A stretch of 48,438 nt of DNA from Chloroflexota bacterium (GCA_013694795.1 JACDBS010000161.1:1-48438), one strand, 5' to 3'. Numbered from the stretch's first letter, positions 8,634 to 48,226 are shown. Notes: generated by a model from the letters alone, not told the origin. A program made the numbers and translations.

Positions 8634-9005
8634 ATGACGAATCCGCGGCATTCACTCGGGCTGGCCGCGGAGGACGCGGTTGCGGTCTGGCTGTCGGCCT
8701 GTGGCTGGCGGTTGGTCGCCCGACGACACCGATCGACGGATGGTGGCGAGGTGGATCTCGTGGCTCTCGATCCAACGCGGGTCCTCGTTGCGATCGAGGT
8801 ACGGGCGAGACGGACCATGCGCAACGGCGCCGCCGCGGCCAGCGTGGATCAGCGACGGATCGGCCGCCTCGGCCGCAGCCTGGCGAGCATCGCTGCATCG
8901 TGCGGCGAGGCCCATGAAGGGCTGCGGATTGATCTCGTCACGGCCGAGCCGGCGGCCGATCAGCCTGGCCGCTGGCGCCTGCGACGCATCCCGGGCATCG
9001 GATGA
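8634..9005 (+). CDS. yraN: YraN family (UPF0102) endonuclease-like protein
   Basis: GGEVDLVALD...LVAIEVRAR core, 123 aa, conserved slot after rnhB. Confidence 0.8.
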   Translation: MTNPRHSLGLAAEDAVAVWLSACGWRLVARRHRSTDGGEVDLVALDPTRVLVAIEVRARRTMRNGAAAASVDQRRIGRLGRSLASIAASCGEAHEGLRIDLVTAEPAADQPGRWRLRRIPGIG

Positions 9006-9012
9006 TCCTTGG

Positions 9013-9891
9013 TCAGCCTCCGAACAGGCGCTCGAGGAGGAGGATCGACGCGATGTACGGACGGCTGACGTTGTAAACGCCGTGGCGATCCGCAGCTGTC
9101 TGGCCCTGATAGTACGCAGCCAAGACCAGATCGCGGTTGCCGGCGTAGCGGGCGAGATAGTGGGCAAGCAGGCGGACGCCAGCGCGCACGTTGTCGCGCT
9201 GGTCGTTGATGTTCACGGGCATGCCGAGCATGCTTTCGCCGACCCAAGCGGCGGTCGCGGGGATGAGCTGCATGACGCCGATGGCGCCGGCGCGGCTGAC
9301 CACGCCCTGCTGCCAGCCGGACTCCTGCCAGGCCACCGCCAGAGCGAAGGGGACAGGGACGCCGTAGCGCGCCGCCTCCTCGACGATCACCTGGCGAACG
9401 GCGTCGCGGCTCGAGACCGCGACGGCCATGGCGGGCGGCATGGGCGCTGTCGTCGGCGCGGGCGCGGGCGCGCTACCCGGAATGATCAGCTGCTGGCCGC
9501 CGAAGATGCGGCTCGGGTTGCTGATGCCGTTGGCGGCCACGATGGCGGCGACGGTGACGCCGTAATGCCGCGCGATGGTGGTCAGGTTCTCACCACGCCC
9601 GACGACGTGGGCGCCGGGAGCGGCAGCGGTCGGCGCGACAGCGGCCGGCGTGGGCGCGATGCCGAGCCGCAGGGTCTGGCCGGCGTAAACGCGGTTCGGA
9701 TTGCTGATCGCATTGAGTTGGACCAGGTCGGTGACAGGGACGCCGTGGCGCTTCGAAATGCCGGTGAGCGTGTCACCGGGACGAACGACAACGGTCGGAT
9801 CGGCTGCCAGCGCGACGGCCCCGAGCATGGGGCCGATGGCCAGGGCTGTGATGAGGCCGCCGACGAGGGCGAGGAACCTGGGGAACGGCAA
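9013..9891 (-). CDS. Secreted LysM-LysM-SLT lytic transglycosylase
   Basis: TTG start, with GAGGA 8 nt upstream. N-terminal hydrophobic signal or anchor. Two LysM repeats (VRPGDTLTGISKRHGV..NPNRVYAGQTLRL; VGRGENLTTIARHYGV..NPSRIFGGQQLIIP). SLT core AVAWQESGWQQ..GAIGVMQL..AAYYQG. Confidence 0.9.
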   Translation of the reverse strand: MPFPRFLALVGGLITALAIGPMLGAVALAADPTVVVRPGDTLTGISKRHGVPVTDLVQLNAISNPNRVYAGQTLRLGIAPTPAAVAPTAAAPGAHVVGRGENLTTIARHYGVTVAAIVAANGISNPSRIFGGQQLIIPGSAPAPAPTTAPMPPAMAVAVSSRDAVRQVIVEEAARYGVPVPFALAVAWQESGWQQGVVSRAGAIGVMQLIPATAAWVGESMLGMPVNINDQRDNVRAGVRLLAHYLARYAGNRDLVLAAYYQGQTAADRHGVYNVSRPYIASILLLERLFGG

Positions 9892-10060
9892 TGCATCGGT
9901 CCTCGGTGGGTGAGGTGGCTCGACCGTTGGGCAATGTGCTCACGGCGGGGCCGATGCTAAGGGCTAACGGAGCTGGGTCAAGGTACGAGCGGACTGCCTC
10001 GGGAGTACGTCGGTACCGATCCATGAAGGGCGGGCATCGGTAGGCCGAATCTGACGCGCC

Positions 10061-11809: not shown

Positions 11810-12565
11810 ATGACCGATGCGGCCGCCGCGCCGGCAATCACGACGTCCCGCCGGGTGCTGCTGAAGCTCTCCGGCGAGGCGCTCATGGGCGAGCACGAAT
11901 ACGGGATCGACCCCGGCGTCGTGCGCGAGATTGCCATGCAGGTGGCCGATGCCGCCGGTGATGGCATCCAGATCGCCGTCGTCGTCGGCGGCGGCAACAT
12001 CTTCCGCGGGTTGGCTGCCAGCGCCCGAGGCATGGACCGTGCGACCGGCGATTACATGGGCATGTTGGCCACGGTGATGAACGGCCTCGCCCTTCAGGAC
12101 GCGCTGGAGCAGGCCGACTGTCCGACGCGCGTCATGAGCGCCATCGCCATGAACGAGATCTGCGAGCCGTACATCCGCCGACGGGCCGAGCGACACCTGG
12201 AGAAGGGCCGCGTGGTCGTCATGGTGGCCGGCACCGGCAACCCGTATTTCACCACCGACACGGCTGCAACACTGCGTGCCGTAGAGATTCACGCTGGGGT
12301 CATCCTGAAGGCGACGCGTGTGGACGGGGTGTACGATGCCGACCCGGAGAAAGAGCCGAATGCGCGGCGATACAGCAAGATCGGCTACACCGAGCTGTTG
12401 AGCAACCGACTCCAGGCGCTTGATGCCACGGCGGTGAGCCTGGCCATGGACAACGAGATGCCGATCGTCGTCTTCGACATGACCCAGCCCGGCAACATCG
12501 CACGAGCGATCCGCGGCGTGCGGATCGGCACCTTGATCTCAGGAGACCGAACCGATGACGCATGA
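11810..12565 (+). CDS. pyrH: UMP kinase
   Basis: [35 protein letters not shown]. Start set at ATG 11810, just after the tsf stop; GTG 11768 and ATG 11786 are possible. Confidence 0.93.
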
Positions 12566-13112
12566 GGCGCTGAGCACCATCGAACCGAAGATGCAGCGCG
12601 CCATCGAGGCCATGGAACGCGAATTCGCCGGAATTCGGACCGGCCGGGCTTCGACCGGACTGGTCGAGCGCATCACGGTCGACTATTACGGGACCCAGAC
12701 CCCGCTCAATCAGGTCGCCGGCATCAGCACCCCCGACGCGCACCTGATCGTCATCCAGCCGTGGGACCGATCGGTCCTGTCGGCGATCGAGAAGGCAATC
12801 ACCAAGAGCGACATCGGACTGACGCCGAACGTGGACGGCACCGTGGTTCGTCTCAACGTCCCCCCGCTCACCGAGGAGCGACGACGCGACATGGTGAAGC
12901 AGGTTCGTCGCCGCACCGAGGAGGCGAGGGTCGAGGTGCGGAACCATCGCCGCGAGGCTGCCGATGCACTCAAGAAGGGGCTGCGCGACGGAGACCTGAG
13001 CGAGGACGAGGAGCACCGCGAGCTCGAGAACCTCCAGCGCCTGACGGACCGTCACATCGAGGCGATCGACGTGCGCGCCGACCGCAAGGAAGCCGAGATC
13101 CTGGAGGTCTGA
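12555..13112 (+). CDS. frr: Ribosome recycling factor
   Basis: [43 protein letters not shown]. 185 aa. Confidence 0.96.
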
Positions 13113-13115
13113 CCG

Positions 13116-13808
13116 GTGCCGGACGAGGTCCGCCCCCGGCATGTGGCCATCATTGCCGACGGCAACCGCCGCTGGGCGCGCGAGCGCGGCCTTCCGGTGC
13201 TGGCCGGTCACGTCGCGGGCATCGAGGCCATTCGTCCCATCGTGCGCCGCGCGCGTGACCTCGGCGTGGAGACGCTCAGCGTGTACACCTTCAGCACCGA
13301 GAACTGGGCACGCCCCGAGGACGAGGTATCGGGCCTCTTCGGGCTGATCGACGGAGCCGTCCGCCAGTATACCGATGAGCTCATCGACGAAGGCGTCCGC
13401 GTGCGGGTCATCGGTCGACTGCATGAAGCCCCGGCGGACGTGCAGCGTTCGATCCGCGCCGCGCAGGACCGCACCCGTGACGGTAGCCGCATGACGCTGA
13501 ATATCTGCTTCAACTACTCCGGCCGCGCCGAGATCGTGGACGCCGCCCGGGCGCTGGTGGCCGCGAATGCCGATCCCAACGACGTCACCGAGCCGCACTT
13601 CGCTGAGCACCTGTACACCGCCGGACAGCCCGACGTGGACCTTGTGATTCGGACCGGCGGCGACCAGCGCACGAGCAACTTTCTGCTCTGGCAAGCCGCG
13701 TACGCGGAGCTCGTCTTCTGCCCCCAGTACTGGCCCGACTTCCGCGTGGCCGACTTCGATGCGGCCCTGGCCGAATTCGACCAGCGCGAGCGACGGTTCG
13801 GGAGCTGA
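13116..13808 (+). CDS. uppS: Isoprenyl transferase (undecaprenyl diphosphate synthase)
   Basis: HVAIIADGNRRWA, LSVYTFSTENWARP, RTGGDQRTSNFLLWQAAYAEL. GTG start. Confidence 0.95.
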   Translation: MPDEVRPRHVAIIADGNRRWARERGLPVLAGHVAGIEAIRPIVRRARDLGVETLSVYTFSTENWARPEDEVSGLFGLIDGAVRQYTDELIDEGVRVRVIGRLHEAPADVQRSIRAAQDRTRDGSRMTLNICFNYSGRAEIVDAARALVAANADPNDVTEPHFAEHLYTAGQPDVDLVIRTGGDQRTSNFLLWQAAYAELVFCPQYWPDFRVADFDAALAEFDQRERRFGS

Positions 13809-13811
13809 CGC

Positions 13812-14711
13812 TTGTTGCGAACGAGACTGCTGTCCGGAGCCATCGGGGCGCCACTCATCGTGGCAATCATCGTGCTCGGCGAGCCGTGGCTCTCGCTGCT
13901 CATCGGGGTCGTCGCCTTCCTTGCCCTGGTCGAGCTCGTCGCGCTCCTGAACGCCGCCGGGTATGAGCCCGCGCGGGTCCTCACCATCCTTGCCGGCATG
14001 ACGCTCGCCGCCGCCGGCCTGGTCGCGGCCAACGCTGAGGGAGTCAGTGGGCTGCTGAGGCCCCTGCTGACCGCGCTCGACCCGCCCGGAGTGGTGGCCG
14101 CGACCTTTGCCGCGGCGGTGCTGCTCATGGCGGTGGCCGCATTCACGCGGCCGGACCCGCAGGCCGGATTCGTGACGTGGGCCATGAGCTCGTTCGGCAT
14201 CGCGTATGTCGGGCTCCTGCTGCCGATGATCGCGCTGGTGGCACACCTGGCACCTGCCGACGGCTCCTGGGCGACGCCGGTGGGCCTGCTGGGATTGCGA
14301 TCGGGGGTCGCGTGGGGGCTCATGCTGGTGCTGGTGGTGTGGGGCTACGACATCGGTGCCTACCTGACCGGGCGCCTCATGGGACGCCGGCAGCTGATCG
14401 ATCACGTAAGCCCATCGAAGACGATCGAGGGCCTCGCCGGGGGCCTGGTGCTTGCGACCGTCGCCGCCGGGATCGGCGCCGCTCTGATCGGCCTTGAGCC
14501 GTGGCACCCGCTCGTCATCGGTCCGCTGGTGGGTCTGTCCGCCCAGGCTGGCGATCTCGCGGAGTCCATGCTCAAGCGCGCCGCCGGACAGAAGGAGTCG
14601 GGATTCCTGGTGCCGGGGCACGGCGGCATCCTCGATCGCATCGACTCGTTCCTCTTCGCCGCGCCCGTCCTGGCCGGCTACGCCCTGCTCGTCGCCGGTC
14701 GCGTGGCGTGA
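13812..14711 (+). CDS. cdsA: Phosphatidate cytidylyltransferase
   Basis: Polytopic membrane protein with SPSKTIEGLAGG and GHGGILDRIDS signatures. TTG start. Confidence 0.9.
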   Translation: MLRTRLLSGAIGAPLIVAIIVLGEPWLSLLIGVVAFLALVELVALLNAAGYEPARVLTILAGMTLAAAGLVAANAEGVSGLLRPLLTALDPPGVVAATFAAAVLLMAVAAFTRPDPQAGFVTWAMSSFGIAYVGLLLPMIALVAHLAPADGSWATPVGLLGLRSGVAWGLMLVLVVWGYDIGAYLTGRLMGRRQLIDHVSPSKTIEGLAGGLVLATVAAGIGAALIGLEPWHPLVIGPLVGLSAQAGDLAESMLKRAAGQKESGFLVPGHGGILDRIDSFLFAAPVLAGYALLVAGRVA

Positions 14712-15841
14712 CGGGGATCGCGCTCCTGGGTTCGACCGGATCGATCGGGCGCCAGGCGCTGGAGGTCGTCGCCGCACTGGGTGATCGCTTCACGATTCTC
14801 GGCCTGGCTGCCGGACGATCGAGCGAAACATTCACGGAGCAGCTCAGGGCATGGCCCGATGCGCGGGCGTGGTGCGCCGGAGGTCGGCCTGACGCGGCCG
14901 AGGCCGGCCGCTGGGCCGACGGCGGGCTCGAGGAGCTGGCCACGGCCCATGGCGTGGAGCTGGTGGTGGTGGCCACGACCGGCATGGCGGCTCTGCCAGC
15001 AGTGCTTGCCGCTCTGCGCTCCGGGCGGCGCGTGGCGCTGGCCAACAAGGAGACGCTGATCACCGGCGGACACCTGGTGACGGCGCTCCTCGACGAGCTG
15101 GGAGGCGATCCGCTCGACCGGCTGCGGCCCATCGACAGCGAGCATTCGGCCATCTGGCAGTGCCTGGTCGGGGAACGCCTTGACGATGTCACGCGTCTGG
15201 TGCTCACCGCCAGCGGAGGCCCGTTCCGAGGGTGGGCGTCGACCGCGCTCGCATCGGTCACACCGCAGGAGGCCCTGGCGCATCCCACCTGGCGCATGGG
15301 CCCCAAGATCACGGTCGACTCGGCCACCCTGGTCAACAAGGCATTCGAGGTCATCGAGGCCAAATGGCTCTACCGGCTCCCGTACTCTAAGATCGATACG
15401 GTGATTCATCCCCAGAGCGTGGTGCACTCGCTCGTCGAGTTCACCGATGGCTCGTACAAGGCGCAGCTCGGCCTGCCCGACATGCGCCTCCCGATCCAGT
15501 ACGCCCTCACCCATCCACGGCGGTTGCCTTCGCCCGCGCGGTCCTCGTCGCCGGCCGACTGGGGCACTCTCGACTTTCTGACATTGACCGATGCGGACTA
15601 TCCCGCCTACGCCGCCGCCCGCGCCGCCGCCGATGGCGGCGGCAACCGTGGCGTCATCCTCAACGCCGCCGACGAGGTGGCCGTCGCAGCCTTCCTTGAT
15701 GGGCGAATCGCGTTTCCTGCGATCGCCGGTACCATCGCGGCCGCGGTCGAGCGCTGGGGCGCCGCCGATGAGCCGGGCCTGGCCGAGATCACCGCGCTTG
15801 ACGCCGAGGTGCGTGGCGCGCTCGAGGCGGAGCTGGCCTGA
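14708..15841 (+). CDS. dxr: 1-deoxy-D-xylulose 5-phosphate reductoisomerase
   Basis: GTG start overlaps the cdsA stop (GTGA). IALLGSTGSIGRQAL, LANKETLI, PIDSEHSAIWQC, HPTWRMGPKITVDSATL. The track ORF from 14501 is an extension. Confidence 0.95.
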   Translation: MTGIALLGSTGSIGRQALEVVAALGDRFTILGLAAGRSSETFTEQLRAWPDARAWCAGGRPDAAEAGRWADGGLEELATAHGVELVVVATTGMAALPAVLAALRSGRRVALANKETLITGGHLVTALLDELGGDPLDRLRPIDSEHSAIWQCLVGERLDDVTRLVLTASGGPFRGWASTALASVTPQEALAHPTWRMGPKITVDSATLVNKAFEVIEAKWLYRLPYSKIDTVIHPQSVVHSLVEFTDGSYKAQLGLPDMRLPIQYALTHPRRLPSPARSSSPADWGTLDFLTLTDADYPAYAAARAAADGGGNRGVILNAADEVAVAAFLDGRIAFPAIAGTIAAAVERWGAADEPGLAEITALDAEVRGALEAELA

Positions 15842-20443: not shown

Positions 20444-20794
20444 TTGAGCCAGCGCACCGACAGGCTCGACAGCCAGATCCGGCAGGAGCTGATGGAGCTC
20501 CTCCAGCGTGAGATGAAGGACCCGCGCGTCGGATTCGCCACCATCACGCGCGTCGAGACCGCACGCGACCTCGGCAGCGCCAAGGTCTGGGTCAGCATTC
20601 TCGGCACGGACGAGGAGCGCGAGCAGACCCTCAAGGCGCTGACTGATGCCGCCCCGTGGCTCCGTCGCCAGCTCGGCGCGCGCCTGACCATCCGCCACAT
20701 CCCGCAGCTCGTCATCCGCCACGACGACTCGATCGAGGCGGGAGACCGCGTCCTGCGCCTGCTGCGGGAGATCGACGAGGAGCGTCCGGAATGA
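20444..20794 (+). CDS. rbfA: Ribosome-binding factor A
   Basis: TTG 20444, 10 nt after the infB stop. RLDSQIRQELMELLQREMKDPRVGFATITRVETARDLGSAKVWVS. Confidence 0.92.
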   Translation: MSQRTDRLDSQIRQELMELLQREMKDPRVGFATITRVETARDLGSAKVWVSILGTDEEREQTLKALTDAAPWLRRQLGARLTIRHIPQLVIRHDDSIEAGDRVLRLLREIDEERPE

Positions 20795-21774
20795 GTCGTG
20801 ATGCGGTGCGCGACGCCATCCTTGGCGCGTCACGCGTCACGGTGATCTGCCATGAGAACCCCGACGCCGATACCCTCGGCTCGGCGCTTGCGTTGCGCAT
20901 GGCCGCCGAGCGTCTGGGCAAGCAGGCGGAGGTCGTTGCCGCCGACCCCGTCCCGCCGTCGCTGGTCGGCCTGCCCCATGCGGACGAGGTCCACGTCAGT
21001 CCGAGGCTCGAGGCCGACCTTGCGGTGGTGGTCGATGGCCCGCTGTCTCGAACGGGTGCCGTGGTGCGAGACTGCGGGGCATGGCTCGAGCGGGCGCGAG
21101 TCGTGAACATCGATCACCACATCTCGAACGACGGCAGCGAGGCGCTCGTCGCCTGGGTCGACGCCGACGCGGCCGCCACCTGCGAGATGGTCGCCATGCT
21201 CATCCCCGAGCTGGGCATCAAGATCGACGTGCAGATCGCGACCGTCCTGACTGCCGGGATCGTGCAGGACACGCACACCTTCTCGCATCCGAACGCGACG
21301 CCGCGCACGCTGCGGGTCGCTGCCGACCTGGTCGAGGCCGGCGCGCCCCTCGCCAGCATTCATCGGTCCATCTACGCCGACAAGCCCTTCAGCATGCTGG
21401 CCCTGTGGGGACGGATCCTGGCCGGGGCAGCGGAGCTCCACGACGGGCGCATCGTGCACGCCAGCATGACGCTCGCGATGCTGGCCGAGACGGCCACTGA
21501 GCCAGTCGCCAGCGAGGGCTTCATCGACCTGCTCGCGTCCACCAAGGCGGCCGATATCACCCTGCTCTTCAAGGAGGCCGATGCGTCCCAGGCACGCGTC
21601 AGCGTCCGCACATCGGCGAATGCCGACGCCGTGGCCATCACCTCGGCCTTTGGTGGTGGGGGCCATGCTCGAGCGGCCGGCTGCACGGTCGACGCCCCGT
21701 TGGCTGACGCCATGGCGCGGGTGCTCGACGAGTGCGAGCGGGAGCTCGCCCGCGCCGATGCTCGGGGTCGTTAA
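20791..21774 (+). CDS. nrnA: DHH/DHHA1 phosphoesterase, NrnA-like oligoribonuclease/pAp phosphatase
   Basis: ATG overlaps the rbfA stop (ATGA). CHENPDADTLGSALAL, IDHHISN, FGGGGHARAAG. Confidence 0.88.
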   Translation: MSRDAVRDAILGASRVTVICHENPDADTLGSALALRMAAERLGKQAEVVAADPVPPSLVGLPHADEVHVSPRLEADLAVVVDGPLSRTGAVVRDCGAWLERARVVNIDHHISNDGSEALVAWVDADAAATCEMVAMLIPELGIKIDVQIATVLTAGIVQDTHTFSHPNATPRTLRVAADLVEAGAPLASIHRSIYADKPFSMLALWGRILAGAAELHDGRIVHASMTLAMLAETATEPVASEGFIDLLASTKAADITLLFKEADASQARVSVRTSANADAVAITSAFGGGGHARAAGCTVDAPLADAMARVLDECERELARADARGR

Positions 21775-23604: not shown

Positions 23605-23640
23605 ACTTCCGAAGCTTACGGAAAGGATGTGGAGGAATAC

Positions 23641-23910
23641 GTGCCGCTCGCCAAGGATTCGAAGAGCGCAATCGTCGACGAATACGCCACGCACGAGGGC
23701 GACACCGGGTCACCCGAGGTGCAGATTGCACTTCTCACCGAGCGGATCAAGTCACTGACGGAGCATCTGCGGAGCTTCCCGAAGGACAATCACTCGCGCC
23801 GCGGGCTGCTGAAGCTCGTCGGGCAGCGAAGACGGCTGCTTGCGTACCTGGTTCGCAATGACGTGGACCGGTACCGCGCCGTTATCAGCAGCCTCGGGCT
23901 GCGCCGCTAG
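23641..23910 (+). CDS. rpsO: 30S ribosomal protein S15
   Basis: [53 protein letters not shown] 23641 has GGAGG 5 nt upstream and gives the usual 89 aa. The track start 23629 lacks a spaced RBS. Confidence 0.95.
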
Positions 23911-23919
23911 ACATTGCTC

Positions 23920-23957
23920 GCGATCGACCCAGAGCCCACGAGGGACCTGGGTCTCGC
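23920..23957 (+). terminator. Hairpin immediately after rpsO (candidate terminator or processing site in the pnp leader)
   Basis: GCGA-tc-GACCCAG (23920-23932) pairs with CTGGGTC-TCGC (23947-23957), giving an 11-bp stem with a 2-nt bulge. No U tract follows. Confidence 0.35.
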
Positions 23958-24073
23958 ACATCTGCAGACTCATCCACCTGGCCTCCGCCCCTGCCTGACG
24001 CCTGCGCTCGAAGAAAGAGAGCGCGCCACGCAGATCCAGCGCCGGATGCCACCCAAGAACACTGGAGGAATCA

Positions 24074-26683
24074 GTGGCTATCAAACACGAGGCCGAAATC
24101 GGCGGCAAGGTCTTCAGCATGGAGACCGGGAAGCTCGCTGAACAGGCCGATGGCGCCGTCATCATTCGATACGGTGACTCCGTCGTACTGGCGACCGCGG
24201 TCGCGGCCAAGGAGCCGCGCGAGGGCGCCGACTTCTTCCCGCTCACCGTCGATTACGAGGAGCGCATGTACGCTGCCGGCAAGATCCCGGGCGGCTTCAT
24301 CAAGCGCGAGTCGCGCCCGTCCGAGGCGGCCATCCTGGCCATGCGCCTCACCGACCGGCCCATTCGCCCGCTCTTCCCGAAGGGCTACTTCAACGACGTG
24401 CAGGTCGTCCTGACGGTCCTCTCGACCGACCAGGAGAATGATCCGGACATCCTGGCGCTGAACGGCGCTTCGGCGGCGCTGAGCGTCAGCCACATCCCGT
24501 TCGCCGGGCCGGTTGGCGCCGTGCGCGTCGGCCGCATCGGCGGCGAGTTCGTGACCAATCCGACGAACAGCCAGCTTGCCGACAGCGAGCTCGACCTCGT
24601 TGTGGCGGGCACGCGCGAGGCGGTCATGATGGTCGAGGCCGGCGCCAAGATCCTGCCCGAGGAGGTCATGGCCGACGCCATCGCCTACGGCCACAGCGAA
24701 CTCCAGGAGTCCATTGACCTCCAGCACAAGCTTGTCGCCTCGGCGGGCACGCCCAAGAAAGTCCCGTTCGTCGGCCCGAAGGCCGCATCGGTCGCACAGC
24801 TTGGCAAGCTGCTGTCGGAAGGCAAGACCGAGTTCGTCGTCTTCGATCTCGAGACGACCGCCATCAAGCCGGAGAATGGCTACATCGTCGACATCGCCGC
24901 CCTTCGCGTGCGTGACGGCCAGGTGGTCGACCGCTTCGAGTCGCTCGTCAACCCGGGGCGCGCCATCGTCGGGCACCAGGTGCACGGAATCAAGACCGAT
25001 GACGTTGCCAACGCGCCGACCGCCGCAGAGGTGCTGACCAACTTCGTGCAGTGGGTCGGCGACGCTCCGGTCGTGGCGCACAACATCAGCTTCGATCTCC
25101 CGTTCGTGCTTCGCCATCTGCCGAACGACACCAAGTGGGAGCCGAAGGCTGTCTTCGACACCCTCGAGCTCGGCTACCAGCTCTACCCCGATGCGGGCGC
25201 CTACAAGCTCGCCGACCTGATTCGCTTCGTCTTCGGCCGCGACCATGCAACTGCGCACCGTGCCATGCCGGACGCCGAGGCTGCTGCCGAGCTGTTCATC
25301 CACTTCACGCAGGGTCTCGCCGAGCGCCTTGACGCGCTGCGCGAGGACATCGCCGGCGAGGTGCGCCGCGCCCGCGAGAACTACAACCGCGCGGATCAGA
25401 GCGACCAGATGGAGGACATCCGCCGGCGCCATGGCATCGGCTCGGCGCTCATGGATGTCGTCACCAAGTCAACGGTTCGCGAGCTCGTGCTCAGCGAGAA
25501 CATCCGCATTGACGGGCGCGACACCACGACGGTCCGCCCGATCAGCGTCGAGGTCGGCGTCCTGCCGCGCACGCACGGCTCAGGCCTCTTCACCCGTGGC
25601 CAGACGCAGGCCCTCTCGATCGCAACGCTCGGCCCGTCGAGCAACGTGCAGCGCATGGACACGATCTCGCCCGAGACCGAGAAGCGCTACATGCACCACT
25701 ACAACATGCCGCCGTACTCGGTGGGCGAGGCGAAGTTCATGCGCGGGCCCGGCCGGCGTGAGATTGGCCATGGCGCCCTCGCCGAGCGGGCCCTGCTGCC
25801 GGTGCTGCCGAGCGCGGACGAGTTCCCGTACGTCATCCGCGTCGTGAGCGAGTGCGTCAGCTCGAACGGTTCGACCTCCATGGCTTCCACCTGCGGCTCC
25901 ACATTGGCGCTCATGGATGCCGGCGTCCCGATCAAGGCGCCGGTGGCCGGTGCCGCGATGGGCCTCATCAACGACAAGGAGACCGGTCGCTACGCCGTCC
26001 TCACCGACATCACCGGCAAGGAGGATGCCTACGGCGACATGGACTTCAAGGTGACCGGCACGGCCGAGGGCGTGACCGCCCTCCAGATGGACATCAAGGT
26101 GGCGGGCATCACCATTGAGATCATGCGGGACGCCCTCCGGCAGGCCCTCAACGCCAGGATGCACATCCTCGGCAAGATGACCGAGGTCATCAGCGCCAGC
26201 CGCGAGGAGCTGAGCCAGTACGCGCCGCGCATCACGACGCTGAAGATCCCGGTCGACAAGATCCGCGACGTCATCGGCGCCGGCGGCAAGGTGATCCGCC
26301 AGATCACCGCCGAGACCGGGACGCAGATCAACGTCGAGGACGACGGCACCATCCAGATCGCCGCCACGAGCGGCGAGGCAGCCCAGAAGGCGATCGCCTG
26401 GATCGAGGGCCTGACCAAGGAGGTCGAAGTCGGCAAGGAGTACATGGGCAAGGTCACCCGGATCATGAACTTCGGGGCCTTCGTCGAGATCCTGCCCGGC
26501 AAGGAGGGGCTGGTCCACATCAGCCAGCTCGCCGATTACCGTGTGCCGCGCGTCGAGGACGTGGTCAGCATCGGCGACGAGCTGATGGTGGTCGTGACCG
26601 AGATCGACCGCATGGGCCGCGTCAACCTGAGCCGCCGCGCCGCGATGGAGCGCCATATGGCCAAGGCGGGCGACCGAAGCTGA
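24074..26683 (+). CDS. pnp: Polyribonucleotide nucleotidyltransferase (PNPase) carrying an inserted DEDDh exonuclease domain
   Basis: GTG start, with GGAGG 5 nt upstream. PH1 ([30 protein letters not shown]). PH2 ([48 protein letters not shown]). KH ([10 protein letters not shown]). S1 ([15 protein letters not shown]). 869 aa. Confidence 0.95.
24815..25345 (+). other. DnaQ/RNase T-like DEDDh 3'-5' exonuclease domain embedded in pnp (approx. aa 248-424)
   Basis: Exo[10 protein letters not shown] (D258 at 24845, E260). Exo[14 protein letters not shown] (D341 at 25094). Exo[17 protein letters not shown] (H395 at 25256, D400). Domain boundaries are approximate. Confidence 0.75.
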
Positions 26684-26702: not shown

Positions 26703-27368
26703 ATGGGTGCCGCGAGCGAGCCATCCGGGGGCGCGATGGCGCTGCAGCAGGTCGCCGACGAGGTCCGCGGCTGCACGCGCTGCGCGCTCTCCGCGGGGCG
26801 CACCAAAGCGGTGCCCGGCGAGGGCAACGTCCGCAGCGATGTCCTCCTCGTCGGGGAGGGTCCGGGCGCCCGCGAGGACGCCACCGGGCGGCCCTTCGTC
26901 GGCCCTGCCGGCCAGCTCCTTGACGAGCTGCTGAGCGCCATCGGCTGGCAGCGAGCGGACGTCTTCATCACCAACGTGGTGAAGTGCCGTCCGCCGGGCA
27001 ACCGTGATCCGGAGCCGGTCGAGGTAGCCGCCTGCGCCGGCTATCTCGACCGCCAGGAACGCGCCCTGGACCCGGCCGTGGTGGTCACGCTCGGCCGGCA
27101 CTCGCTCCAGCGCTACCTGCCCGGCGCGCGAATCGGGGCGGTCCACGGCCACCTGCGTCGCTCATCCTCCGGCCAGCACGTCTTCCCGATGTACCATCCT
27201 GCTGCGGCGTTGCACCAGGCCTCGCTGCGCGAGACCCTGTTCAGCGATATGCGTGGCCTGCCGGCGGCGCTGCTGGCCGCGCGCGAGGCGATCGGCGGCG
27301 AGCGCACGACAGCCGTTCAGGCGGAGTCGACCACGGCCGATGACGTCGAACAGATGACCCTCTTTTAG
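26703..27368 (+). CDS. Uracil-DNA glycosylase, family 4 (Fe-S type)
   Basis: CTRCALS, LLVGEGPGAREDATGRPFVGPAGQLLD, NVVKCRPPGNRDP, MYHPAAAL. Confidence 0.9.
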   Translation: MGAASEPSGGAMALQQVADEVRGCTRCALSAGRTKAVPGEGNVRSDVLLVGEGPGAREDATGRPFVGPAGQLLDELLSAIGWQRADVFITNVVKCRPPGNRDPEPVEVAACAGYLDRQERALDPAVVVTLGRHSLQRYLPGARIGAVHGHLRRSSSGQHVFPMYHPAAALHQASLRETLFSDMRGLPAALLAAREAIGGERTTAVQAESTTADDVEQMTLF

Positions 27369-27376
27369 GAGCACTC

Positions 27377-29041
27377 ATGTCCGAATCCCTGCGCATCATC
27401 CCGCTCGGCGGGGTGGGCGAGGTCGGCAAGAACATCACCGTCATCGAGGTCGACGGTGAGATCCTGGTCGTCGACTGCGGCCTGGCCTTTCCGGAGCCTG
27501 ACATGCTGGGGATCGACCTTGTCATCCCCGACGTCACGTACCTCGCCGAACGGCGGGACCGAGTCCGCGGCATCATCCTGACCCACGGCCACGAGGATCA
27601 CACCGGCGCCCTTCCCTACGTCCTCCCGCAGATCCCCGGTACGCCCATCTACGCCACGCGGCTGACCGAGGGCCTCGTCCAGGGCAAGCTCAAGGAGCAC
27701 AAGCTCCTCGATTCCACTCCGCTCCACGTCATCGAGCCGGGAAACGAATTCGCGGTCGGCATTTTCCGTCTCACGCCGTTCCGCGTCAACCACTCCATCC
27801 CCGATGGGGTCGGCTACGCCATCGAAACGCCGCTCGGCACCATTGTCCACACCGGCGACTTCAAGTTCGACCACACCCCACCCGACGGCAGGCGCGCCGA
27901 CCTCGGTCTCATCGCCGAGATCGGCAACCGGGGCGTCGCGTTCCTGCTGTCGGACTCTACCCGCGCCGAGCGCGAGGGCTACACGCTCTCCGAGATGACG
28001 GTCGGAGACAGCCTGAACCGGTTGGTGGGGGAGGCACCGGGTCGCGTCATCGTGGCCACGTTCGCCAGCAATATCGGTCGCGTCCAGCAGGTGATCGACG
28101 CCGCCTGGGCCCATGGTCGCAAGATGGTTGCCCTCGGGCGCAGCATGGAGCAGAACACGGCCATCGCCCTCGAGCGCGGCTACCTCGACGATCGTGACGG
28201 TACGCTCGTCCGCAAGGAGCAGCTCCAGCGCCTGTCCAAGGAGCAGCTGGTGGTGATGACCACCGGCTCCCAGGGTGAGCCGATGTCCGGGCTGACGCGG
28301 ATGAGCAACCGCGACCACCGCAATATCACCATCGAGCCCGGCGACACGGTGATCGTGTCCGCCAGCCCCATCCCGGGCAACGAGGAGGCAGTAGCCAAGA
28401 CCATCGACAACCTCTTCAAGGAGGGGGCGATGGTCCACTACGAGCCCCTCGTGCACTGCCACGTCTCCGGGCACGGGTCGCGCGAGGAGCTGAAGCTCAT
28501 GTTGGGCCTCGTCAAGCCGCGCCACTTCATCCCGGTGCACGGCGAGTACCGCATGCTCGTGCAGCACGGGCTCCTGGCTGAAGGCGCCGGCGTGGATGTT
28601 GACAAGATCTTCGTGCTCGAGAACGGCCAGGTTGTCGAGTTCGATGGCGAACGGGCAAGAATGGCCGGCACGGTGTCGGCCGGGGCGGTCCTGGTCGACG
28701 GCATCGCGGCCATCGACGGTATCGACGGGGTCGTGCTGCGCGATCGGCGCATGCTCGCATCCGATGGCGTGGTGATGGTGGCGTTGACGATTGATGGAAA
28801 GACCGGCCAGCCGGTCGGTCTGCCGGATCTCGTCAGCCGTGGCTTCCTGTCAGATCCCGAGGATCCGTTGATGGGCGAGGCGCGCGACCACCTCATGCAA
28901 GCACTACAGCAGCGCCGCGAGGACGAGCACACCGCTGAGGCGGGTTACGTGAAGACCAAGATTCGTGACACCCTCAGCCGTTTCTTCCAGCAGCGCACGA
29001 AGCGTCGGCCCATGATCCTGCCGATCGTGATGGAGGTCTGA
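27377..29041 (+). CDS. rnj: Ribonuclease J
   Basis: IIPLGGVGEVGKN, THGHEDHTGALPY metallo-beta-lactamase motif, beta-CASP segment, HVSGHGSREEL. Confidence 0.95.
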   Translation: MSESLRIIPLGGVGEVGKNITVIEVDGEILVVDCGLAFPEPDMLGIDLVIPDVTYLAERRDRVRGIILTHGHEDHTGALPYVLPQIPGTPIYATRLTEGLVQGKLKEHKLLDSTPLHVIEPGNEFAVGIFRLTPFRVNHSIPDGVGYAIETPLGTIVHTGDFKFDHTPPDGRRADLGLIAEIGNRGVAFLLSDSTRAEREGYTLSEMTVGDSLNRLVGEAPGRVIVATFASNIGRVQQVIDAAWAHGRKMVALGRSMEQNTAIALERGYLDDRDGTLVRKEQLQRLSKEQLVVMTTGSQGEPMSGLTRMSNRDHRNITIEPGDTVIVSASPIPGNEEAVAKTIDNLFKEGAMVHYEPLVHCHVSGHGSREELKLMLGLVKPRHFIPVHGEYRMLVQHGLLAEGAGVDVDKIFVLENGQVVEFDGERARMAGTVSAGAVLVDGIAAIDGIDGVVLRDRRMLASDGVVMVALTIDGKTGQPVGLPDLVSRGFLSDPEDPLMGEARDHLMQALQQRREDEHTAEAGYVKTKIRDTLSRFFQQRTKRRPMILPIVMEV

Positions 29042-38627: not shown

Positions 38628-39932
38628 TCAGGCTTGGCGTGACGAGGCGGAACGCCGCCTGCCGTTGCGGCCAGCTGCGGTCAGCTCTGAGGCGATGGCC
38701 GGCGGCAGGTGTCCGCTGACACGGACCCCAGTCTCCTCGTAGTTCTGCTCGACGTCACCGGAGCTGCGAGCGCGAGCCACGAGCTCGCCGAGCTCATAGG
38801 GCACGACCGCGTCAACGGCCACCATCGTGCCGCGCAACGCCTCCGCGATGCGCTCCCGCAGCAAGTCGAGACCCTCCCCCGTCATGGCGCTGACGAATGC
38901 GGTCGTCTCGCTGGCCGGCGGGGCGCCCCCATCGGCCGGCAGGAGGTCGATCTTGTTGAAAACGGTGATGCGCGGCTTGTCGCCCGCGCCAAGCTCGTCG
39001 AGGACGCTCTGTACGGCGGCCTGCTGACCGACGAAGTCGAGGTCAGCGGCGTCGACCACCTCCAGCAGCAGATCGGCCCGCTTGACCTCCTCCAGCGTGG
39101 CACGGAATGCGTCGACCAGGTCGTGGGGCAGCTTGTTGATGAATCCGACCGTATCGGTGACCACCACTTCGCGCCCGCTGGGCAGGGTGACCTGGCGGCT
39201 GGTCGGATCGAGCGTGGCGAACAGCATGTCGGCGACGTACAGGTCGGCATCGGCGAGGGCGTTGAGCAGCGTGCTCTTGCCGGCATTCGTGTAGCCAACC
39301 AGCGCGACGCTGGCAACGTGGTTCCGGTCTCGCTTGCGGGCTGCCGTGGCCCGATGGCGCTCCACGTCGGCAAGCTCGGCCCTCACCTTCTTGATCTTGT
39401 CGCGGATGAGGCGCCGGTCCGTCTCGAGCTGGCTCTCGCCGGGTCCGCGCGTGCCAATCCCGCCGCCGGTGCGCGACAGGTGGGTCCACATCCGCGTCAG
39501 GCGCGGGAGGTGATACTCGAGTGCGGCCAGCTCGACCTGGAGGCGGCCTTCCTTGGTCTTCGCGTGGCGCCCAAAGATGTCGATGATCAGTGCCGAACGG
39601 TCGAGCACCTTGCAATCGAGCAGCTTCTCGAGGCTGCGCTGCTGATTCGGCGCCAGCTCATCGTCGACGATGAGCAGGTTGAAGTCGCTGGCCACCTTCT
39701 CATCCAGCAGCTCGGCTGCGCGACCTTTACCGAAGTACCAGACCGGGTCGGGGCTCGGTCGACGCTGAGAAGCGCGGCCCACCACGGTGGCGCCGGCGGT
39801 CTCGGCCAGCGCGGCAAGCTCCGCCAGGGAGCGGCCCACCGGCCATCGGCTGTCGGACGGATCGTCGAGTCCGATGAGGAAGGCGCGCTCGACCGCGGTG
39901 GTGAGGTCGATGGTGCGTGCGCGTTCGGACAT
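38628..39932 (-). CDS. hflX: GTPase HflX
   Basis: HflX N-domain (IFGRHAKTKEGRLQVELAALEYHLPRL, GPGESQLETDRR). G domain VALVGYTNAGKSTLLNAL, DTVGF, NKID. Confidence 0.95.
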   Translation of the reverse strand: MSERARTIDLTTAVERAFLIGLDDPSDSRWPVGRSLAELAALAETAGATVVGRASQRRPSPDPVWYFGKGRAAELLDEKVASDFNLLIVDDELAPNQQRSLEKLLDCKVLDRSALIIDIFGRHAKTKEGRLQVELAALEYHLPRLTRMWTHLSRTGGGIGTRGPGESQLETDRRLIRDKIKKVRAELADVERHRATAARKRDRNHVASVALVGYTNAGKSTLLNALADADLYVADMLFATLDPTSRQVTLPSGREVVVTDTVGFINKLPHDLVDAFRATLEEVKRADLLLEVVDAADLDFVGQQAAVQSVLDELGAGDKPRITVFNKIDLLPADGGAPPASETTAFVSAMTGEGLDLLRERIAEALRGTMVAVDAVVPYELGELVARARSSGDVEQNYEETGVRVSGHLPPAIASELTAAGRNGRRRSASSRQA

Positions 39933-39943
39933 ATGTCGAGCTC

Positions 39944-39972
39944 ATGGTATCCGATAGGTACGAAGGTCCCAA
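39944..39972 (-). promoter_or_regulatory. Candidate hflX promoter (TTGGGA-N17-TACCAT) giving a very short leader
   Basis: The minus-strand -35 is the complement of 39967-39972 and the -10 is the complement of 39944-39949. The -10 ends 11 nt before the hflX ATG. Confidence 0.3.
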
Positions 39973-40043
39973 TTGCCACAATGCCGCCGCTCTGCGATAC
40001 CAGACCTCACCGGATCAAACAGGGGCACTCGGAGACGGCCTGC

Positions 40044-41642
40044 GTGGCTTCCACAAATCCCAGCGCGACGCGCCCTACCGCCAGTGCAGGCGGTCTGACA
40101 CGACGCCTTCTTGCCGGGGCCGTGCTCGCCGTGCTCGTCTTCGCGTCCGTCCACCGGCTCAGTCTGGCGCTGCTCGCGAATGACGAGGCGACCGCGATCG
40201 TCGTCGCATCGGTGAGTGCCATCGCCTTCGCCGCGCTCGCTCTGCGGCGCACCATCACACCGCTGCTGGCGACCCAGGCGGATCTCCAGGTCCGCTACGA
40301 GGCGGCGCTGGCCGACGCCCTGCTCGATCCCCTGACCGGCCTCGGCAATCATCGGGCGTTCCACGAGGAGCTGGACCGCCAGGTTGCGGCTTCGCTGCGC
40401 TACGAGGCACCACTTGCGCTCCTGCTCATCGACCTCGACGAGTTCAAGGCCATCAATGATGGCCGCGGTCATGCCGGCGGCGATCGAGTTCTGCGCGGGT
40501 TCGGCGAGCTGCTCGGCACTTCAATGCGACTGGTGGATCGGGCCTTCCGTGTCGGAGGAGACGAATTTGCCGTGCTCCTTCCGCATACGGATGTCGAGGG
40601 CGCCCGGGTCGCCGCTCGTAGGCTGCTGGCCCAGGCGCTGCAGCCGAGTGCCCGCAGCAGCAACCTTGAAGTGATCTCGTTTTCGGGTGGCATCTCGGCT
40701 CTGCCGGAGCTCGCGCTCGGACCGGCACAGTTGTATTCACAGGCCGATGCGGCCCTGTACGCGGCCAAGCGCGGTGGCCGGACCGACATCGCGACCTTCG
40801 ATCCCACGATGGCCGCCGAACGTGAGGACTCCGACACGTCGTCCTCCGCCGTGGCGGAGGTGATCGCCCGCGGCCAGCTGCGCGCGGTGTATCAGCCGAT
40901 CGTCTCCCTCGCCAGCGGACACATCATCGGTGTCGAAGGCCTGATTCGACCGATGCCGCCGGCACCGTTCGCCAACCCCGCCGAGCTTTTCGCGGCAGCG
41001 GAGGCGAATGGACGGCTCGTTCAACTGGACCTGGCGTGCATCGAGACGATTGTGGCAGGGGCGCGCGACCTGCCGTCGGACCAATTTCTCAGCGTCAACC
41101 TCACGCCTTCGACCGCCGAGGCGCCCGAGTTCGGCAGCGGCGCCCTCCTTGCCGTCCTGGCGCGGCATGGGTTCCCGCCGGATCGGCTCGTGGTCGAGCT
41201 CACCGAGGGACAGCAGCTGCACGATCTGAATCGCGTTCGATCGCGGCTGGGGGCCTGCCGTCGAGCGGGGATTCGCTTTGCCGCGGACGATATCGGGGCC
41301 GGCAACGCCGGCCTGCGGCTCCTTGCCGAGATCCGCTTCGACGTCCTCAAGGTGGACCTGACGCTGGTGCAGCGCAGCGCGTCCGAGGGACAGTCCAGCG
41401 CCGTCCTCAGCTCGGTGGTCGAGCTTGCTGCACGCACCGGCGCGCTCGTGATCGCCGAGGGCATCGAGTACGAGCGACAGCTCGACCCCCTGCGAGCCTT
41501 GGGGATCACGGTCGGACAGGGCTTCTACCTTGGTCGGCCCGGTCCGTTGGTCCCCGCGGTCGCTGCACGCCAGATCCCGGAGGTACCCCTCGCCGGCGTC
41601 TCCGCCTGGCGGCAGTCGATGGGCCTGCCCTCGGTCAGGTGA
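40044..41642 (+). CDS. Membrane-anchored GGDEF-EAL protein (diguanylate cyclase/phosphodiesterase)
   Basis: Two TM helices. GGDEF domain (LTGLGNHRAF, RVGGDEFAVLL, with an RLVD I-site 5 aa upstream). EAL domain (VEGLIRP, SVNLT, VVELTE, DDIGAG, KVD, AEGIE, GQGFYLGRP). Start is uncertain: GTG 40044 has GGAGA 8 nt upstream; ATG 39981 and 39933 are alternatives. The upstream part of the 977-aa track ORF is antisense to hflX. Confidence 0.88.
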   Translation: MASTNPSATRPTASAGGLTRRLLAGAVLAVLVFASVHRLSLALLANDEATAIVVASVSAIAFAALALRRTITPLLATQADLQVRYEAALADALLDPLTGLGNHRAFHEELDRQVAASLRYEAPLALLLIDLDEFKAINDGRGHAGGDRVLRGFGELLGTSMRLVDRAFRVGGDEFAVLLPHTDVEGARVAARRLLAQALQPSARSSNLEVISFSGGISALPELALGPAQLYSQADAALYAAKRGGRTDIATFDPTMAAEREDSDTSSSAVAEVIARGQLRAVYQPIVSLASGHIIGVEGLIRPMPPAPFANPAELFAAAEANGRLVQLDLACIETIVAGARDLPSDQFLSVNLTPSTAEAPEFGSGALLAVLARHGFPPDRLVVELTEGQQLHDLNRVRSRLGACRRAGIRFAADDIGAGNAGLRLLAEIRFDVLKVDLTLVQRSASEGQSSAVLSSVVELAARTGALVIAEGIEYERQLDPLRALGITVGQGFYLGRPGPLVPAVAARQIPEVPLAGVSAWRQSMGLPSVR

Positions 41643-42583: not shown

Positions 42584-43393
42584 CTACACCTCGATCAGGC
42601 GCTGGACACGCTCGATGGCGCTGGCGCGACCGGTGCCGGGCGACGCGGTGATCACCACCGCATTCAGCGAAACGGGACCATCGGCGACGGCAAAGCGGGT
42701 CGGAAGATGGCGGGTGAAGCGCGGCAAGACGGTTTCGAGCGAGAAGCCGATGATCGAGTCGCGCGGCCCGGTCATGCCGACGTCGCTGATGTAGGCGGTG
42801 CCCTTGGGCAGGATGCGGGCATCGGCGGTGGGAACGTGGGTGTGGGTGCCCACCACGCCGGACACCCGTCCATCGAGATACCAGCCCATGGCGTTCTTCT
42901 CGGAGGTGATCTCGCAGTGGAAGTCCAGGATCCGGATCGGCGGCAGAGGGTCCGCGGCGCCGTCCAGCAGGTCGTCAAGCTTGGTGAACGGTGAATCGAG
43001 CTGGTTCATGAAGACTCGACCCATGGCATTGATGACGGCGATCTCGTCGCCCTCATCGGTGTGGTGGACGAGCCAGCCACGCCCGGGAGCCTCGTCGGGG
43101 TAGTTGATCGGTCGCAGGACGGGCCGATCTGTGTCGAGGTAGTCGTAGATCTCGCGCTTGTCCCAGATGTGGTTGCCGCTCGTGATGACGTCGATCCCAC
43201 CGCCCAGCAGCTCCTCCGCCAGGCTGGGCGTGAGACCGGCGCCCGCGGCGGTGTTTTCGCCATTGGCGATGACCACGTCAAGCTCGAACTCGCGCCGCAG
43301 CTCCGGGAGCGCCTGCATCACCGCCAGCCGACCTGGCTTGCCGATGATGTCGCCGATGACGCAGATGCGGACACCGCCGTCGGCGGAGCTCAC
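42584..43393 (-). CDS. ymdB: YmdB-like metallophosphoesterase (TIGR00282 family; 2',3'-cyclic-nucleotide 2'-phosphodiesterase)
   Basis: [54 protein letters not shown] overlaps the rny stop (GTGA). Confidence 0.9.
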
Positions 43394-44919: not shown

Positions 44920-45072
44920 TTCGGCTCCCGCTACGCGTTGGAGCCCGTATGGGCGGTGTCGCGCCCGCATCGCGGGCACGTCGGTCGATCGATCAGGTGG
45001 GCCGTTCGGGCCCGGAAAAGGCGAGTGTAGCGCAAAGGGACCTCTCCCTCCCAGACGCGGCTCGGAGCGAGG

Positions 45073-46910: not shown

Positions 46911-46919
46911 CGGTCTGGG

Positions 46920-47987: not shown

Positions 47988-48037
47988 CGTTTTCGTTACG
48001 CTCCTCGTGCGATGCGGTGTGCCCCGGTGGCGTTCGC

Positions 48038-48226
48038 TCACTCCTCGTCCTGGGGCTCAGGTTCTGGTGTTCGTTCCTTGCGCCTCGGCTTGATCAACTC
48101 GACCGGGCGCGTTGGAGGTTGGTAGCTCGGCGCGGTCGAACTGGCCGATCCGGGCTGGATCTTGGGCGCCTTCTCCTTGGCTTTGCGCTTGGGCTCCTTG
48201 CGTGGTCGATCTCGACCCTTTGCCAT
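48038..48226 (-). CDS. Small, highly basic, Pro/Lys-rich hypothetical protein upstream of recA
   Basis: 62-aa [25 protein letters not shown]...[14 protein letters not shown] lies 8 nt upstream of the ATG. No family recognised. Confidence 0.45.

Follow-up and report, generated by a model that had tools for sequence, protein, structure and literature searches.

In the Chloroflexota genome assembly GCA_013694795.1, a contig of 48,438 nucleotides (JACDBS010000161.1:1-48438; this whole stretch is the window analysed here) carries a pnp gene whose product, an 869-amino-acid (aa) polynucleotide phosphorylase (PNPase), contains a complete DEDDh-type 3'-5' exonuclease domain embedded between its two RNase PH-like cores. 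The same architecture recurs in Candidatus (Ca.) Limnocylindria, a class of Chloroflexota. The reading preferred here, at a probability of about 0.75, is that the exonuclease would have been inserted once, in the ancestor of this class, into its housekeeping pnp; that the architecture comes together with retained catalytic capacity is regarded as likely. PNPase is among the most studied and most conserved enzymes of RNA decay, and its five-domain layout is, to our knowledge, regarded as fixed across the range from bacteria to human mitochondria. A preliminary description of this locus, made from the sequence alone, had suggested that no PNPase of such architecture was on record, and full-text literature searches indeed found no paper describing a PNPase with an embedded DEDDh domain. 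The databases hold hundreds of copies of the fusion, machine-annotated either as "PNPase" or as "DNA pol III epsilon family exonuclease"; the architecture is undescribed rather than unseen, and a well-known enzyme would carry an ancient, class-wide second catalytic domain. Ca. Limnocylindria are abundant in freshwater and soil. A whole bacterial class would bear a second, mechanistically different 3'-5' exonuclease centre on its PNPase polypeptide. Should the module be active, phosphorolytic and hydrolytic 3'-end decay would be naturally fused in one covalent unit.

The host protein is a PNPase

The gene starts with GTG, preceded at a distance of 5 nt by a GGAGGA ribosome-binding site. Its product scores 982.6 bits against the NCBIfam model TIGR03591 (cutoff 525) and 978.4 bits against NF008805 (cutoff 471), and in both cases the insert divides the match into two stretches. 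The best matches in the PDB are PNPases, with E values of 1e-199 to 4e-215 and 37-41% identity. The defining layout of a PNPase is present, with two RNase PH-like cores in tandem and KH and S1 domains behind them, and the Pfam domains follow each other in the order that the preliminary description had expected: RNase_PH (aa 14-142), RNase_PH_C (145-208), RNase_T/PF00929 (255-408), a remnant of the PNPase alpha domain PF03726 (458-483), a second RNase_PH/RNase_PH_C pair, KH (721-778) and S1 (784-855). The alpha-domain remnant is the sub-threshold member of this series, at 19.3 bits versus a cutoff of 24.6.

Conservation was counted over 240 full-length family members, namely the 120 best relatives of the window protein and the 120 best relatives of P0143, a full-length protein of 864 aa from Limnocylindrus. 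Across this set the phosphate- and metal-binding motifs of the second core (PH2), GRREIGHG (560-567), SNGSTSMAS (597-605) and a third motif at 650-659, are invariant. The E. coli PNPase residues R399/H403, S437-S439 and D486/D492/K494 are presumably represented here by R562/H566, S600-S602 and D651/D657/K659. The PNPase motifs quoted in the preliminary description, which had called both cores and the two RNA-binding domains intact, all occur in the protein and do not vary in the family. When the full-length AlphaFold2 (AF2) model was compared with the PDB, all structural matches were canonical PNPases (target-normalised template-modelling (TM) score 0.8-0.88), and none of them contains the extra domain. 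The protein is a bona fide PNPase, passing the PNPase features that sequence and structure prediction can check, and by analogy the Limnocylindria enzyme presumably forms the usual PNPase trimer.

A 453-aa open reading frame (ORF) runs antisense to the 5' half of pnp (24071-25432, minus strand); it is a typical shadow ORF of high-GC DNA, with no evidence of being a gene.

The inserted domain and its boundaries

Alignment of the window protein to solved PNPases breaks off near aa 233 and picks up again near aa 415-456. The interval holds 181 residues here compared with 32 in the S. aureus enzyme (5yjj), a net gain of about 150. The gained segment matches PF00929 over profile positions 1-164 of 164, with 83.7 bits in the context of the whole protein and 87.7 bits when taken alone (cutoff 24). 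It aligns end to end with the exonuclease domain of T. maritima PolC (2p1j, E 9e-21), and also with PolC and DinG sequences, the Exo motifs corresponding residue for residue and ExoIII reading HRAMPDAE. The DEDDh superfamily is recognised in the full-length PF00929 match, in the Exo motifs standing in their proper order, and in the RNase H-like alpha/beta fold of DnaQ type. The segment first proposed as an exonuclease (24815-25345, aa 248-424 of the 869-aa ORF) encloses the domain as delimited here, and its motifs had been quoted correctly. The alignment to 2p1j, PolC and DinG likewise bears out the full catalytic set that had been assigned, D258/E260/D341/H395/D400.

The domain is predicted to sit inside the all-alpha linker, after its first helix and before its second. 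In the AF2 secondary structure one helix (237-248) precedes the insert and three (415-432, 439-453 and 457-475) follow it, so the linker appears to be interrupted rather than replaced. The earlier claim that the tail of the helical linker survives behind the insert is therefore correct, and is extended by the helix retained in front of it. The connectors are short, with 4 residues on the N-terminal side and 2 between the last DEDDh helix (397-412) and the following linker helix, which suggests a fixed mounting and not a flexible tether. The full-length model has a mean predicted local distance difference test (pLDDT) score of 76 and a predicted TM score of 0.73, with the DEDDh region forming a block at pLDDT 83-95; modelled alone, the insert reaches 91.5.

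In composition the insert resembles its surroundings. Its G+C content at third codon positions (GC3) is 0.87, versus 0.86 in the neighbouring genes, its codon-adaptation value lies inside the range of windows across pnp, and the composition shows no step, in line with the in-frame segment and flank-like codon use noted at the outset.

Type of exonuclease

The model of the insert alone is structurally closest to the exonuclease domain of S. aureus DinG (8zef/9ii8), with a TM score of 0.85, a root-mean-square deviation of 2.0-2.1 Å and 30% identity. It is followed by the S. thermophilus DnaQ domain (0.83), PolC (0.82) and the epsilon subunit of DNA polymerase III (about 0.8), and then by RNase T (about 0.75) and REXO2 (0.67). 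A family profile built from 14 inserts and run on PDB chains gave a similar order: 124 and 122 bits for the PolC exonuclease (2p1j and 9qpc), 107 for DinG, 83 for Cas2-DEDDh, 66-78 for DnaQ/epsilon, 50 for ExoX and 35-46 for RNase T. Orn/REXO2 chains stay at or below 25.7 bits and are matched only over profile positions 5-31, that is, over the ExoI motif.

At the level of named families, the best NCBIfam models for the insert are PRK07883-type DEDD exonucleases, PolC and DinG, and their scores fall far short of the respective equivalog cutoffs. The epsilon and PolC models fail (TIGR01406, 75-78 bits versus 222.7; NF001688, 117-120 versus 873; TIGR01405, 110 versus 1043), as does the DinG model NF005981 (113-118 versus 789). 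By Pfam the flanks of the insert consist of PNPase domains only, so that no polymerase association is found, and no helicase domain occurs in the protein. The 25 best-scoring NCBIfam families do not include RNase T. Taken together, profiles and predicted fold place the insert as a DEDDh module of the epsilon/PolC/DinG type that belongs to none of those named families. An Orn-like or RNase T-like identity was considered and ruled out by the profile and fold rankings; of the initial label "DnaQ/RNase T-like", the DnaQ part holds, whereas the RNase T part does not, the domain being distant from both RNase T and Orn.

This ranking bears on one possible role, that of a built-in oligoribonuclease which would finish the 2-5-nt limit products of PNPase, as Orn does in E. 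coli or REXO2 in mitochondria. Such a role would be a special case of action on RNA. Short oligonucleotides are left over by processive exoribonucleases and call for dedicated nanoRNases (PMC9779919, PMC10570053), and human mitochondria are a documented case in which PNPase is paired with a DEDDh nanoRNase (PMC7261184). Released fragments could, moreover, concentrate at the distal face of the enzyme, where the insert would lie by the pore to the active site. Against it stand the low Orn/REXO2 profile scores, confined to ExoI, while PolC and DinG reach 107-124 bits, and the lower structural similarity to REXO2 than to DinG. In all lineages examined, moreover, an NrnA-like DHH/DHHA1 gene is kept at a distance of five genes upstream. 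Since the insert is remote from Orn and the cluster already holds this NrnA-like gene, a nanoRNA-finishing role is considered unlikely.

Conservation and selection of the catalytic centres

Of the five catalytic residues, E260, D341, H395 and D400 are present in 240/240 family members and D258 in 239. The domain around them has diverged strongly: between lineages it is 37-47% identical, versus 74-79% for PH2. In an alignment of 14 inserts sharing less than 72% mutual identity, ExoI (D-x-E-T-T), ExoII (H-N/S-x-x-F-D) and ExoIII (H-R-A-x-x-D-A) are all kept.

The ratio of nonsynonymous to synonymous substitution rates (dN/dS), computed pairwise over six orthologues, is 0.165 for the DEDDh segment, compared with 0.133 for the first core (PH1), 0.124 for PH2 and 0.097 for KH-S1. 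The linker piece before the insert, at 0.357, is the least constrained segment of the gene, and the piece after it stands at 0.212. The insert is under purifying selection comparable to that on the PH cores. Because the catalytic residues are invariant or nearly so and dN/dS is low, both catalytic centres, the phosphorolytic one in PH2 and the hydrolytic two-metal one of the DEDDh domain, appear to be kept by selection, and the DEDDh domain is very probably an active exonuclease, as judged from its sequence.

The opposite view would make the domain a catalytically silent module, that is, a structural, regulatory or protein- or nucleic-acid-binding appendage of the linker that does not cut. Inactive DEDD-fold domains exist elsewhere. 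No part of the protein is under weaker constraint than the linker pieces flanking the insert (dN/dS 0.21-0.36), and the PNPase linker tolerates variation between species (PMC2723993). A silent module is nevertheless improbable, given the dN/dS of the insert itself and the retention of all five catalytic residues, with their ExoI TT, ExoII HN-FD and ExoIII HRA-DA contexts, in a domain that has otherwise drifted to 37% identity.

A few family members depart from the consensus. One of the 240 fusion proteins has Y at the position of D258 (nt 24845-24847), and in the H-N pair of ExoII (nt 25079-25084) N337 is replaced by S in 25/240 and H336 by Q in 2/240. Sequencing errors could account for these variants, as could tuning or inactivation in particular lineages.

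Distribution and origin of the fusion

All of the 120 best clusters at 90% identity that match the window protein carry PF00929 together with RNase_PH, KH and S1, at 87-98% identity and with lengths of 854-895 aa. The underlying assemblies come from ENA, JGI, NCBI and Logan, and some of the contigs exceed 1 Mb, the longest reaching 2.2 Mb. The fusion-bearing relatives belong to Ca. Limnocylindria, including Ca. Limnocylindrus and Limnocylindrales. Eight species-representative loci from metagenome-assembled genomes (MAGs) of the class show the same architecture with conserved synteny, at 73-87% identity over the junction region; the contig search behind them matched exact peptide words and returned only close relatives. 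A more divergent lineage is represented by P0143, whose insert is only 37% identical to that of the window protein, with the same architecture and RNase_T at aa 254-408. Its 120 best relatives, named Ca. Limnocylindrus and Limnocylindrales, carry the fusion without exception.

These observations also speak to the possibility of an artefact, whether a chimeric assembly or a recent horizontal insertion or mobile element in one contig. The slightly lower overall GC content of the insert (0.648, versus 0.671 in the core) is the only sign in its favour. On the other side are the in-frame architecture in all 240 of the best clusters, drawn from four independent data sources and hundreds of independent contigs of up to 2.2 Mb, the conserved synteny, the matching GC3, and a dS of the insert similar to that of its flanks. 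The chance of an artefact is practically negligible. A chimeric assembly, which the preliminary description had set aside as something to be excluded by read mapping, is ruled out by the clusters and the eight syntenic loci, and recent horizontal transfer by the same evidence and by composition.

On one of the MAG contigs (L001, 5392-8600), pnp (aa 1-574) and the neighbouring gene of the uracil-DNA glycosylase (UDG) superfamily (aa 112-185) match only piecewise in single high-scoring segment pairs; this suggests frameshifts or assembly errors within the same architecture.

The insert was also searched with HMMER against 1.84 billion representatives at 50% identity, and the best 150 of 25,680 matches were considered. 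It was this search that returned P0143. Among these 150, a DEDDh domain runs on into PNPase sequence in 14 representatives, several of which are fragments. The fusion pieces listed are all of Limnocylindria type, and no fusion outside the class was seen among the best 150 of 25,680 matches. The count is a lower bound, as no full-length representative near the window protein is among the matches listed; the clusters of canonical PNPase representatives may have absorbed full-length fusions. In reciprocal BLAST comparisons, the inserts of the fusion lineages are mutual best matches, ahead of stand-alone DEDDh domains and of those embedded in DinG or PolC. As the inserts are each other's closest relatives, a single origin is indicated, and one ancestral insertion followed by vertical descent would be the simplest reading. 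The fusion would provide a clean synapomorphy for Ca. Limnocylindria, and it exposes an alternation in automated annotation.

Probable position of the module and possible substrates

The helical linker of E. coli PNPase lies on the face of the torus opposite S1/KH and lines a side pore leading to the active site, and this pore has been proposed to control the passage of nucleoside diphosphate and phosphate (PMC2723993). Because PNPase structures place the linker opposite KH/S1, three DEDDh modules per presumed trimer would be mounted on the face distal to the RNA-entry portal, beside the side pores. There they would hydrolyse single-stranded 3' ends without phosphate and complement the phosphorolytic sites. 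Their targets would be ends that the PNPase sites cannot start or finish, such as short limit oligonucleotides, PNPase-resistant ends, and deoxy or hybrid ends. One particle would in this way combine phosphorolytic and hydrolytic 3'-5' decay. That the main substrates are intermediates of RNA decay is put at about even odds, a view favoured by the host enzyme, by its KH and S1 domains and by the genomic setting, the window also encoding RNase J and RNase Y. Single-stranded DNA or RNA:DNA hybrids, which the homology of the insert favours, are proposed as main substrates only tentatively.

Several points weigh against the proposed scheme. The nearest characterised relatives of the insert are DNA exonucleases, so that an RNA substrate has no homology behind it. 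Since the insert would lie on the face opposite the KH/S1 portal, it is not obvious how it would share substrates with the PH2 sites, and the NrnA-like DHH/DHHA1 gene in the same cluster means that the cell may already have a nanoRNase. The AF2 prediction is of a monomer and does not fix the orientation of the DEDDh site towards the channel or the side pore; in addition, confidence in the full-length model is low for S1 and for some loops.

An alternative to the scheme of RNA 3'-end decay holds that the module processes DNA ends or R-loops, as a DNA or RNA:DNA-hybrid 3'-5' exonuclease extending the moonlighting of PNPase in repair and recombination. The closest relatives of the insert in sequence and structure are all DNA exonucleases (PolC, DinG, Cas2-DEDDh, DnaQ and ExoX), and its top NCBIfam model is the DEDD exonuclease family PRK07883. 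PNPase of B. subtilis degrades single-stranded DNA in the 3'-5' direction and, together with RecN and RecA, takes part in the repair of double-strand breaks (PMC2709576, PMC3241651), E. coli pnp has been implicated in homologous recombination (PMC5379764), and R-loops are removed by the DEDD domain of DinG (PMC12525004). The host, on the other hand, is the housekeeping rpsO-pnp unit of a translation and RNA-processing cluster. Its sole DNA-repair neighbour, the UDG-family gene, is split from pnp by asd in Limnocylindrus and Limnocylindrales and travels with rnj, and the sugar specificity of DEDDh enzymes is not predictable from homology. A role in DNA-end or R-loop processing is accordingly rated as possible, with some doubt. 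Because the insert is of the DNA-proofreading/DinG type, the fusion bears on the debated roles of PNPase in DNA repair and at R-loops.

Returning to combined decay by one particle, partnerships of this kind are known in trans. REXO2 clears short RNAs from the human PNPase-SUV3 degradosome, where PNPase works with a separate DEDD exonuclease (PMC7261184), and in Caulobacter the degradosome contains RNase D as well as PNPase (PMC4245959). It is conceivable, if rather speculative and unlikely, that the Limnocylindria trimer is a single-polypeptide bacterial counterpart of the eukaryotic exosome hand-off, in which a substrate captured by KH/S1 would be threaded to PH2 or to the distal DEDDh site, by way of the channel or of the linker-lined side pore. 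If so, the enzyme could switch between energy-conserving phosphorolysis and phosphate-independent hydrolysis, which could help in phosphate-poor freshwater and soil, and it could remove ends on which PNPase stalls, namely RNA:DNA hybrid or deoxy ends.

Comparison with known systems

Canonical bacterial PNPases, such as those of E. coli, S. aureus and C. crescentus and GPSI of Streptomyces, share with the Limnocylindria enzyme the order PH1-linker-PH2-KH-S1, the phosphorolytic motifs and the rpsO-pnp synteny. They differ in lacking the 150-160 or so extra residues of the DEDDh domain in the linker, which are absent from solved PNPase chains (505-784 residues).

The PolC exonuclease (2p1j; 9qpc), the best match of the insert in sequence, has the same DEDDh motifs and a closely similar fold. 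Its host is a polymerase, whereas the Limnocylindria host is a phosphorolytic RNase without polymerase, PHP or clamp-binding parts. The DEDDh domain of PolC is itself a domain-within-domain insertion, into the PHP domain, and offers a precedent for the placement of this fold inside another. In DinG (S. aureus 8zef/9ii8; B. subtilis), the best structural match, the DEDD domain is N-terminal and accompanied by a helicase, whereas here it is internal and stands without one. The DEDD domain of B. subtilis DinG cuts single-stranded DNA, the RNA strand in hybrids and, with Mn2+, single-stranded RNA (PMC12525004).

Orn and REXO2 belong to the DEDDh superfamily and are functionally paired with PNPase in E. 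coli and in human mitochondria (PMC7261184, PMC9779919). They differ from the insert in that only the ExoI motif aligns, and Orn is a stand-alone homodimer.

The broader likeness is to assemblies in which a PH-type ring with an S1/KH cap is joined to a hydrolytic 3'-5' exonuclease, as in the exosome and in the Caulobacter degradosome, where PNPase and RNase D are assembled on RNase E. The eukaryotic exosome combines a PH-like ring with the hydrolytic Rrp44, positioned opposite the S1/KH cap, and with the DEDD-type Rrp6; the putative distal placement of the DEDDh module would resemble that of Rrp44. In both systems the exonucleases are separate partners, whereas in Limnocylindria ring and exonuclease are joined covalently in a single polypeptide and the phosphorolytic sites of the ring persist. 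None of the partners is an epsilon-type DEDDh: Rrp6 and RNase D are of the DEDDy kind, and Rrp44 is of the RNB kind. The likeness would thus concern a possible mode of working, and implies neither homology to these partners nor membership of such complexes. It suggests a parallel, in which hydrolytic exonucleases have been recruited independently to PH-type rings (Rrp44/Rrp6 in the exosome, RNase D in Caulobacter, REXO2 in mitochondria). The Limnocylindria enzyme offers a tractable system in which to ask what drives the evolution of such pairings, which of the two chemistries handles which substrates, and whether the linker with its side pore acts as a functional port.

Gene neighbourhood and other features of the window

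The fused gene follows rpsO directly, and this position identifies it as the resident rpsO-pnp orthologue. Pfam finds Ribosomal_S15 in the corresponding place in L014 and L015, two loci of Limnocylindrus and Limnocylindrales. In the eight MAG loci the gene order is NrnA-like DHH/DHHA1, truB, ribF, rpsO, pnp, UDG, rnj and ftsK; the Limnocylindrus/Limnocylindrales cluster reads nusA, infB, rbfA, DHH/DHHA1, truB, ribF, rpsO and pnp. The features of the window are collected in Table 1.

Table 1. Features of pnp, its domains and motifs, and neighbouring genes in the window (positions in nucleotides)
Feature	Position	Strand	Remarks
NrnA-like DHH/DHHA1 gene (nanoRNase/pAp phosphatase family)	20656-21774	+	between infB/rbfA and truB; kept in all Limnocylindria loci examined
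rpsO (ribosomal protein S15)	23629..23910	+	93-aa ORF directly upstream of pnp; 89-100% identical in loci L001-L007
pnp coding sequence	24074..26683	+	869 aa, GTG start; PNPase with embedded DEDDh domain
First RNase PH-like core (PH1 aa 14-142, PH1_C aa 145-208)	24113..24697	+	Pfam PF01138, PF03725
N-terminal part of all-alpha linker (aa 211-251; predicted helix 237-248) and 4-residue connector	24704..24826	+	AF2 secondary structure
Inserted DEDDh 3'-5' exonuclease domain (aa 252-412; Pfam RNase_T 255-408)	24827..25309	+	PF00929
ExoI motif, D258 and E260 (FVVFDLETT)	24845..24853	+	aligned to ExoI of 2p1j, PolC and DinG
ExoII, D341 (AHNISFD)	25094..25096	+	aligned to HNxxFD of PolC and DinG
ExoIII motif, general-base H395 and D400 (HRAMPD)	25256..25273	+	aligned to HRAxxDA of PolC, DinG and epsilon
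C-terminal part of all-alpha linker (aa 413-475; predicted helices 415-432, 439-453, 457-475)	25310..25498	+	AF2 secondary structure
Second RNase PH-like core (PH2, catalytic)	25499..26173	+	Pfam; phosphate- and metal-binding motifs
KH (aa 721-778) and S1 (aa 784-855) RNA-binding domains	26234..26638	+	PF00013 46.2 bits, PF00575 70.1 bits
UDG-superfamily (uracil-DNA glycosylase) gene	26703-27368	+	starts 20 bp after pnp stop, ends 9 bp before rnj
RNase J (rnj)	27377-29041	+	within 20 kb of pnp
RNase Y	43393-44979	-	within 20 kb of pnp

A link to a DNA-repair operon through the UDG-superfamily gene was considered and ruled out. In L014 and L015, asd lies between pnp and the UDG gene and UDG-rnj-ftsK stay together, so that no functional coupling to pnp can be claimed. 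Further upstream, the long ORF of truB (from 21581) overlaps the 3' end of the DHH/DHHA1 gene, and the true truB start is probably further downstream.

The rpsO-pnp intergenic leader (23911-24073, plus strand, 163 nt) folds into two stable hairpins with a minimum free energy of -64.4 kcal/mol. This is only marginally better than shuffled sequence and not significant (z = -1.83), and an Rfam scan of the whole window, leader included, returned zero matches. The leader might be autoregulatory, as in E. coli.

Three long ORFs are without a Pfam match at E <= 1e-5: 8680-9960 (plus strand, 426 aa), 12303-14777 (minus strand, 825 aa) and 46341-48125 (plus strand, 594 aa). Some of these may be spurious antisense ORFs of GC-rich DNA and others uncharacterised proteins. 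A GGDEF-EAL protein of cyclic di-GMP turnover (38709-41642, plus strand, 977 aa) has an N-terminal region of about 530 aa that likewise lacks a Pfam match at this threshold. With PNPase, RNase J and RNase Y, three major enzymes of Gram-positive-type RNA decay are encoded in the 48-kb stretch.

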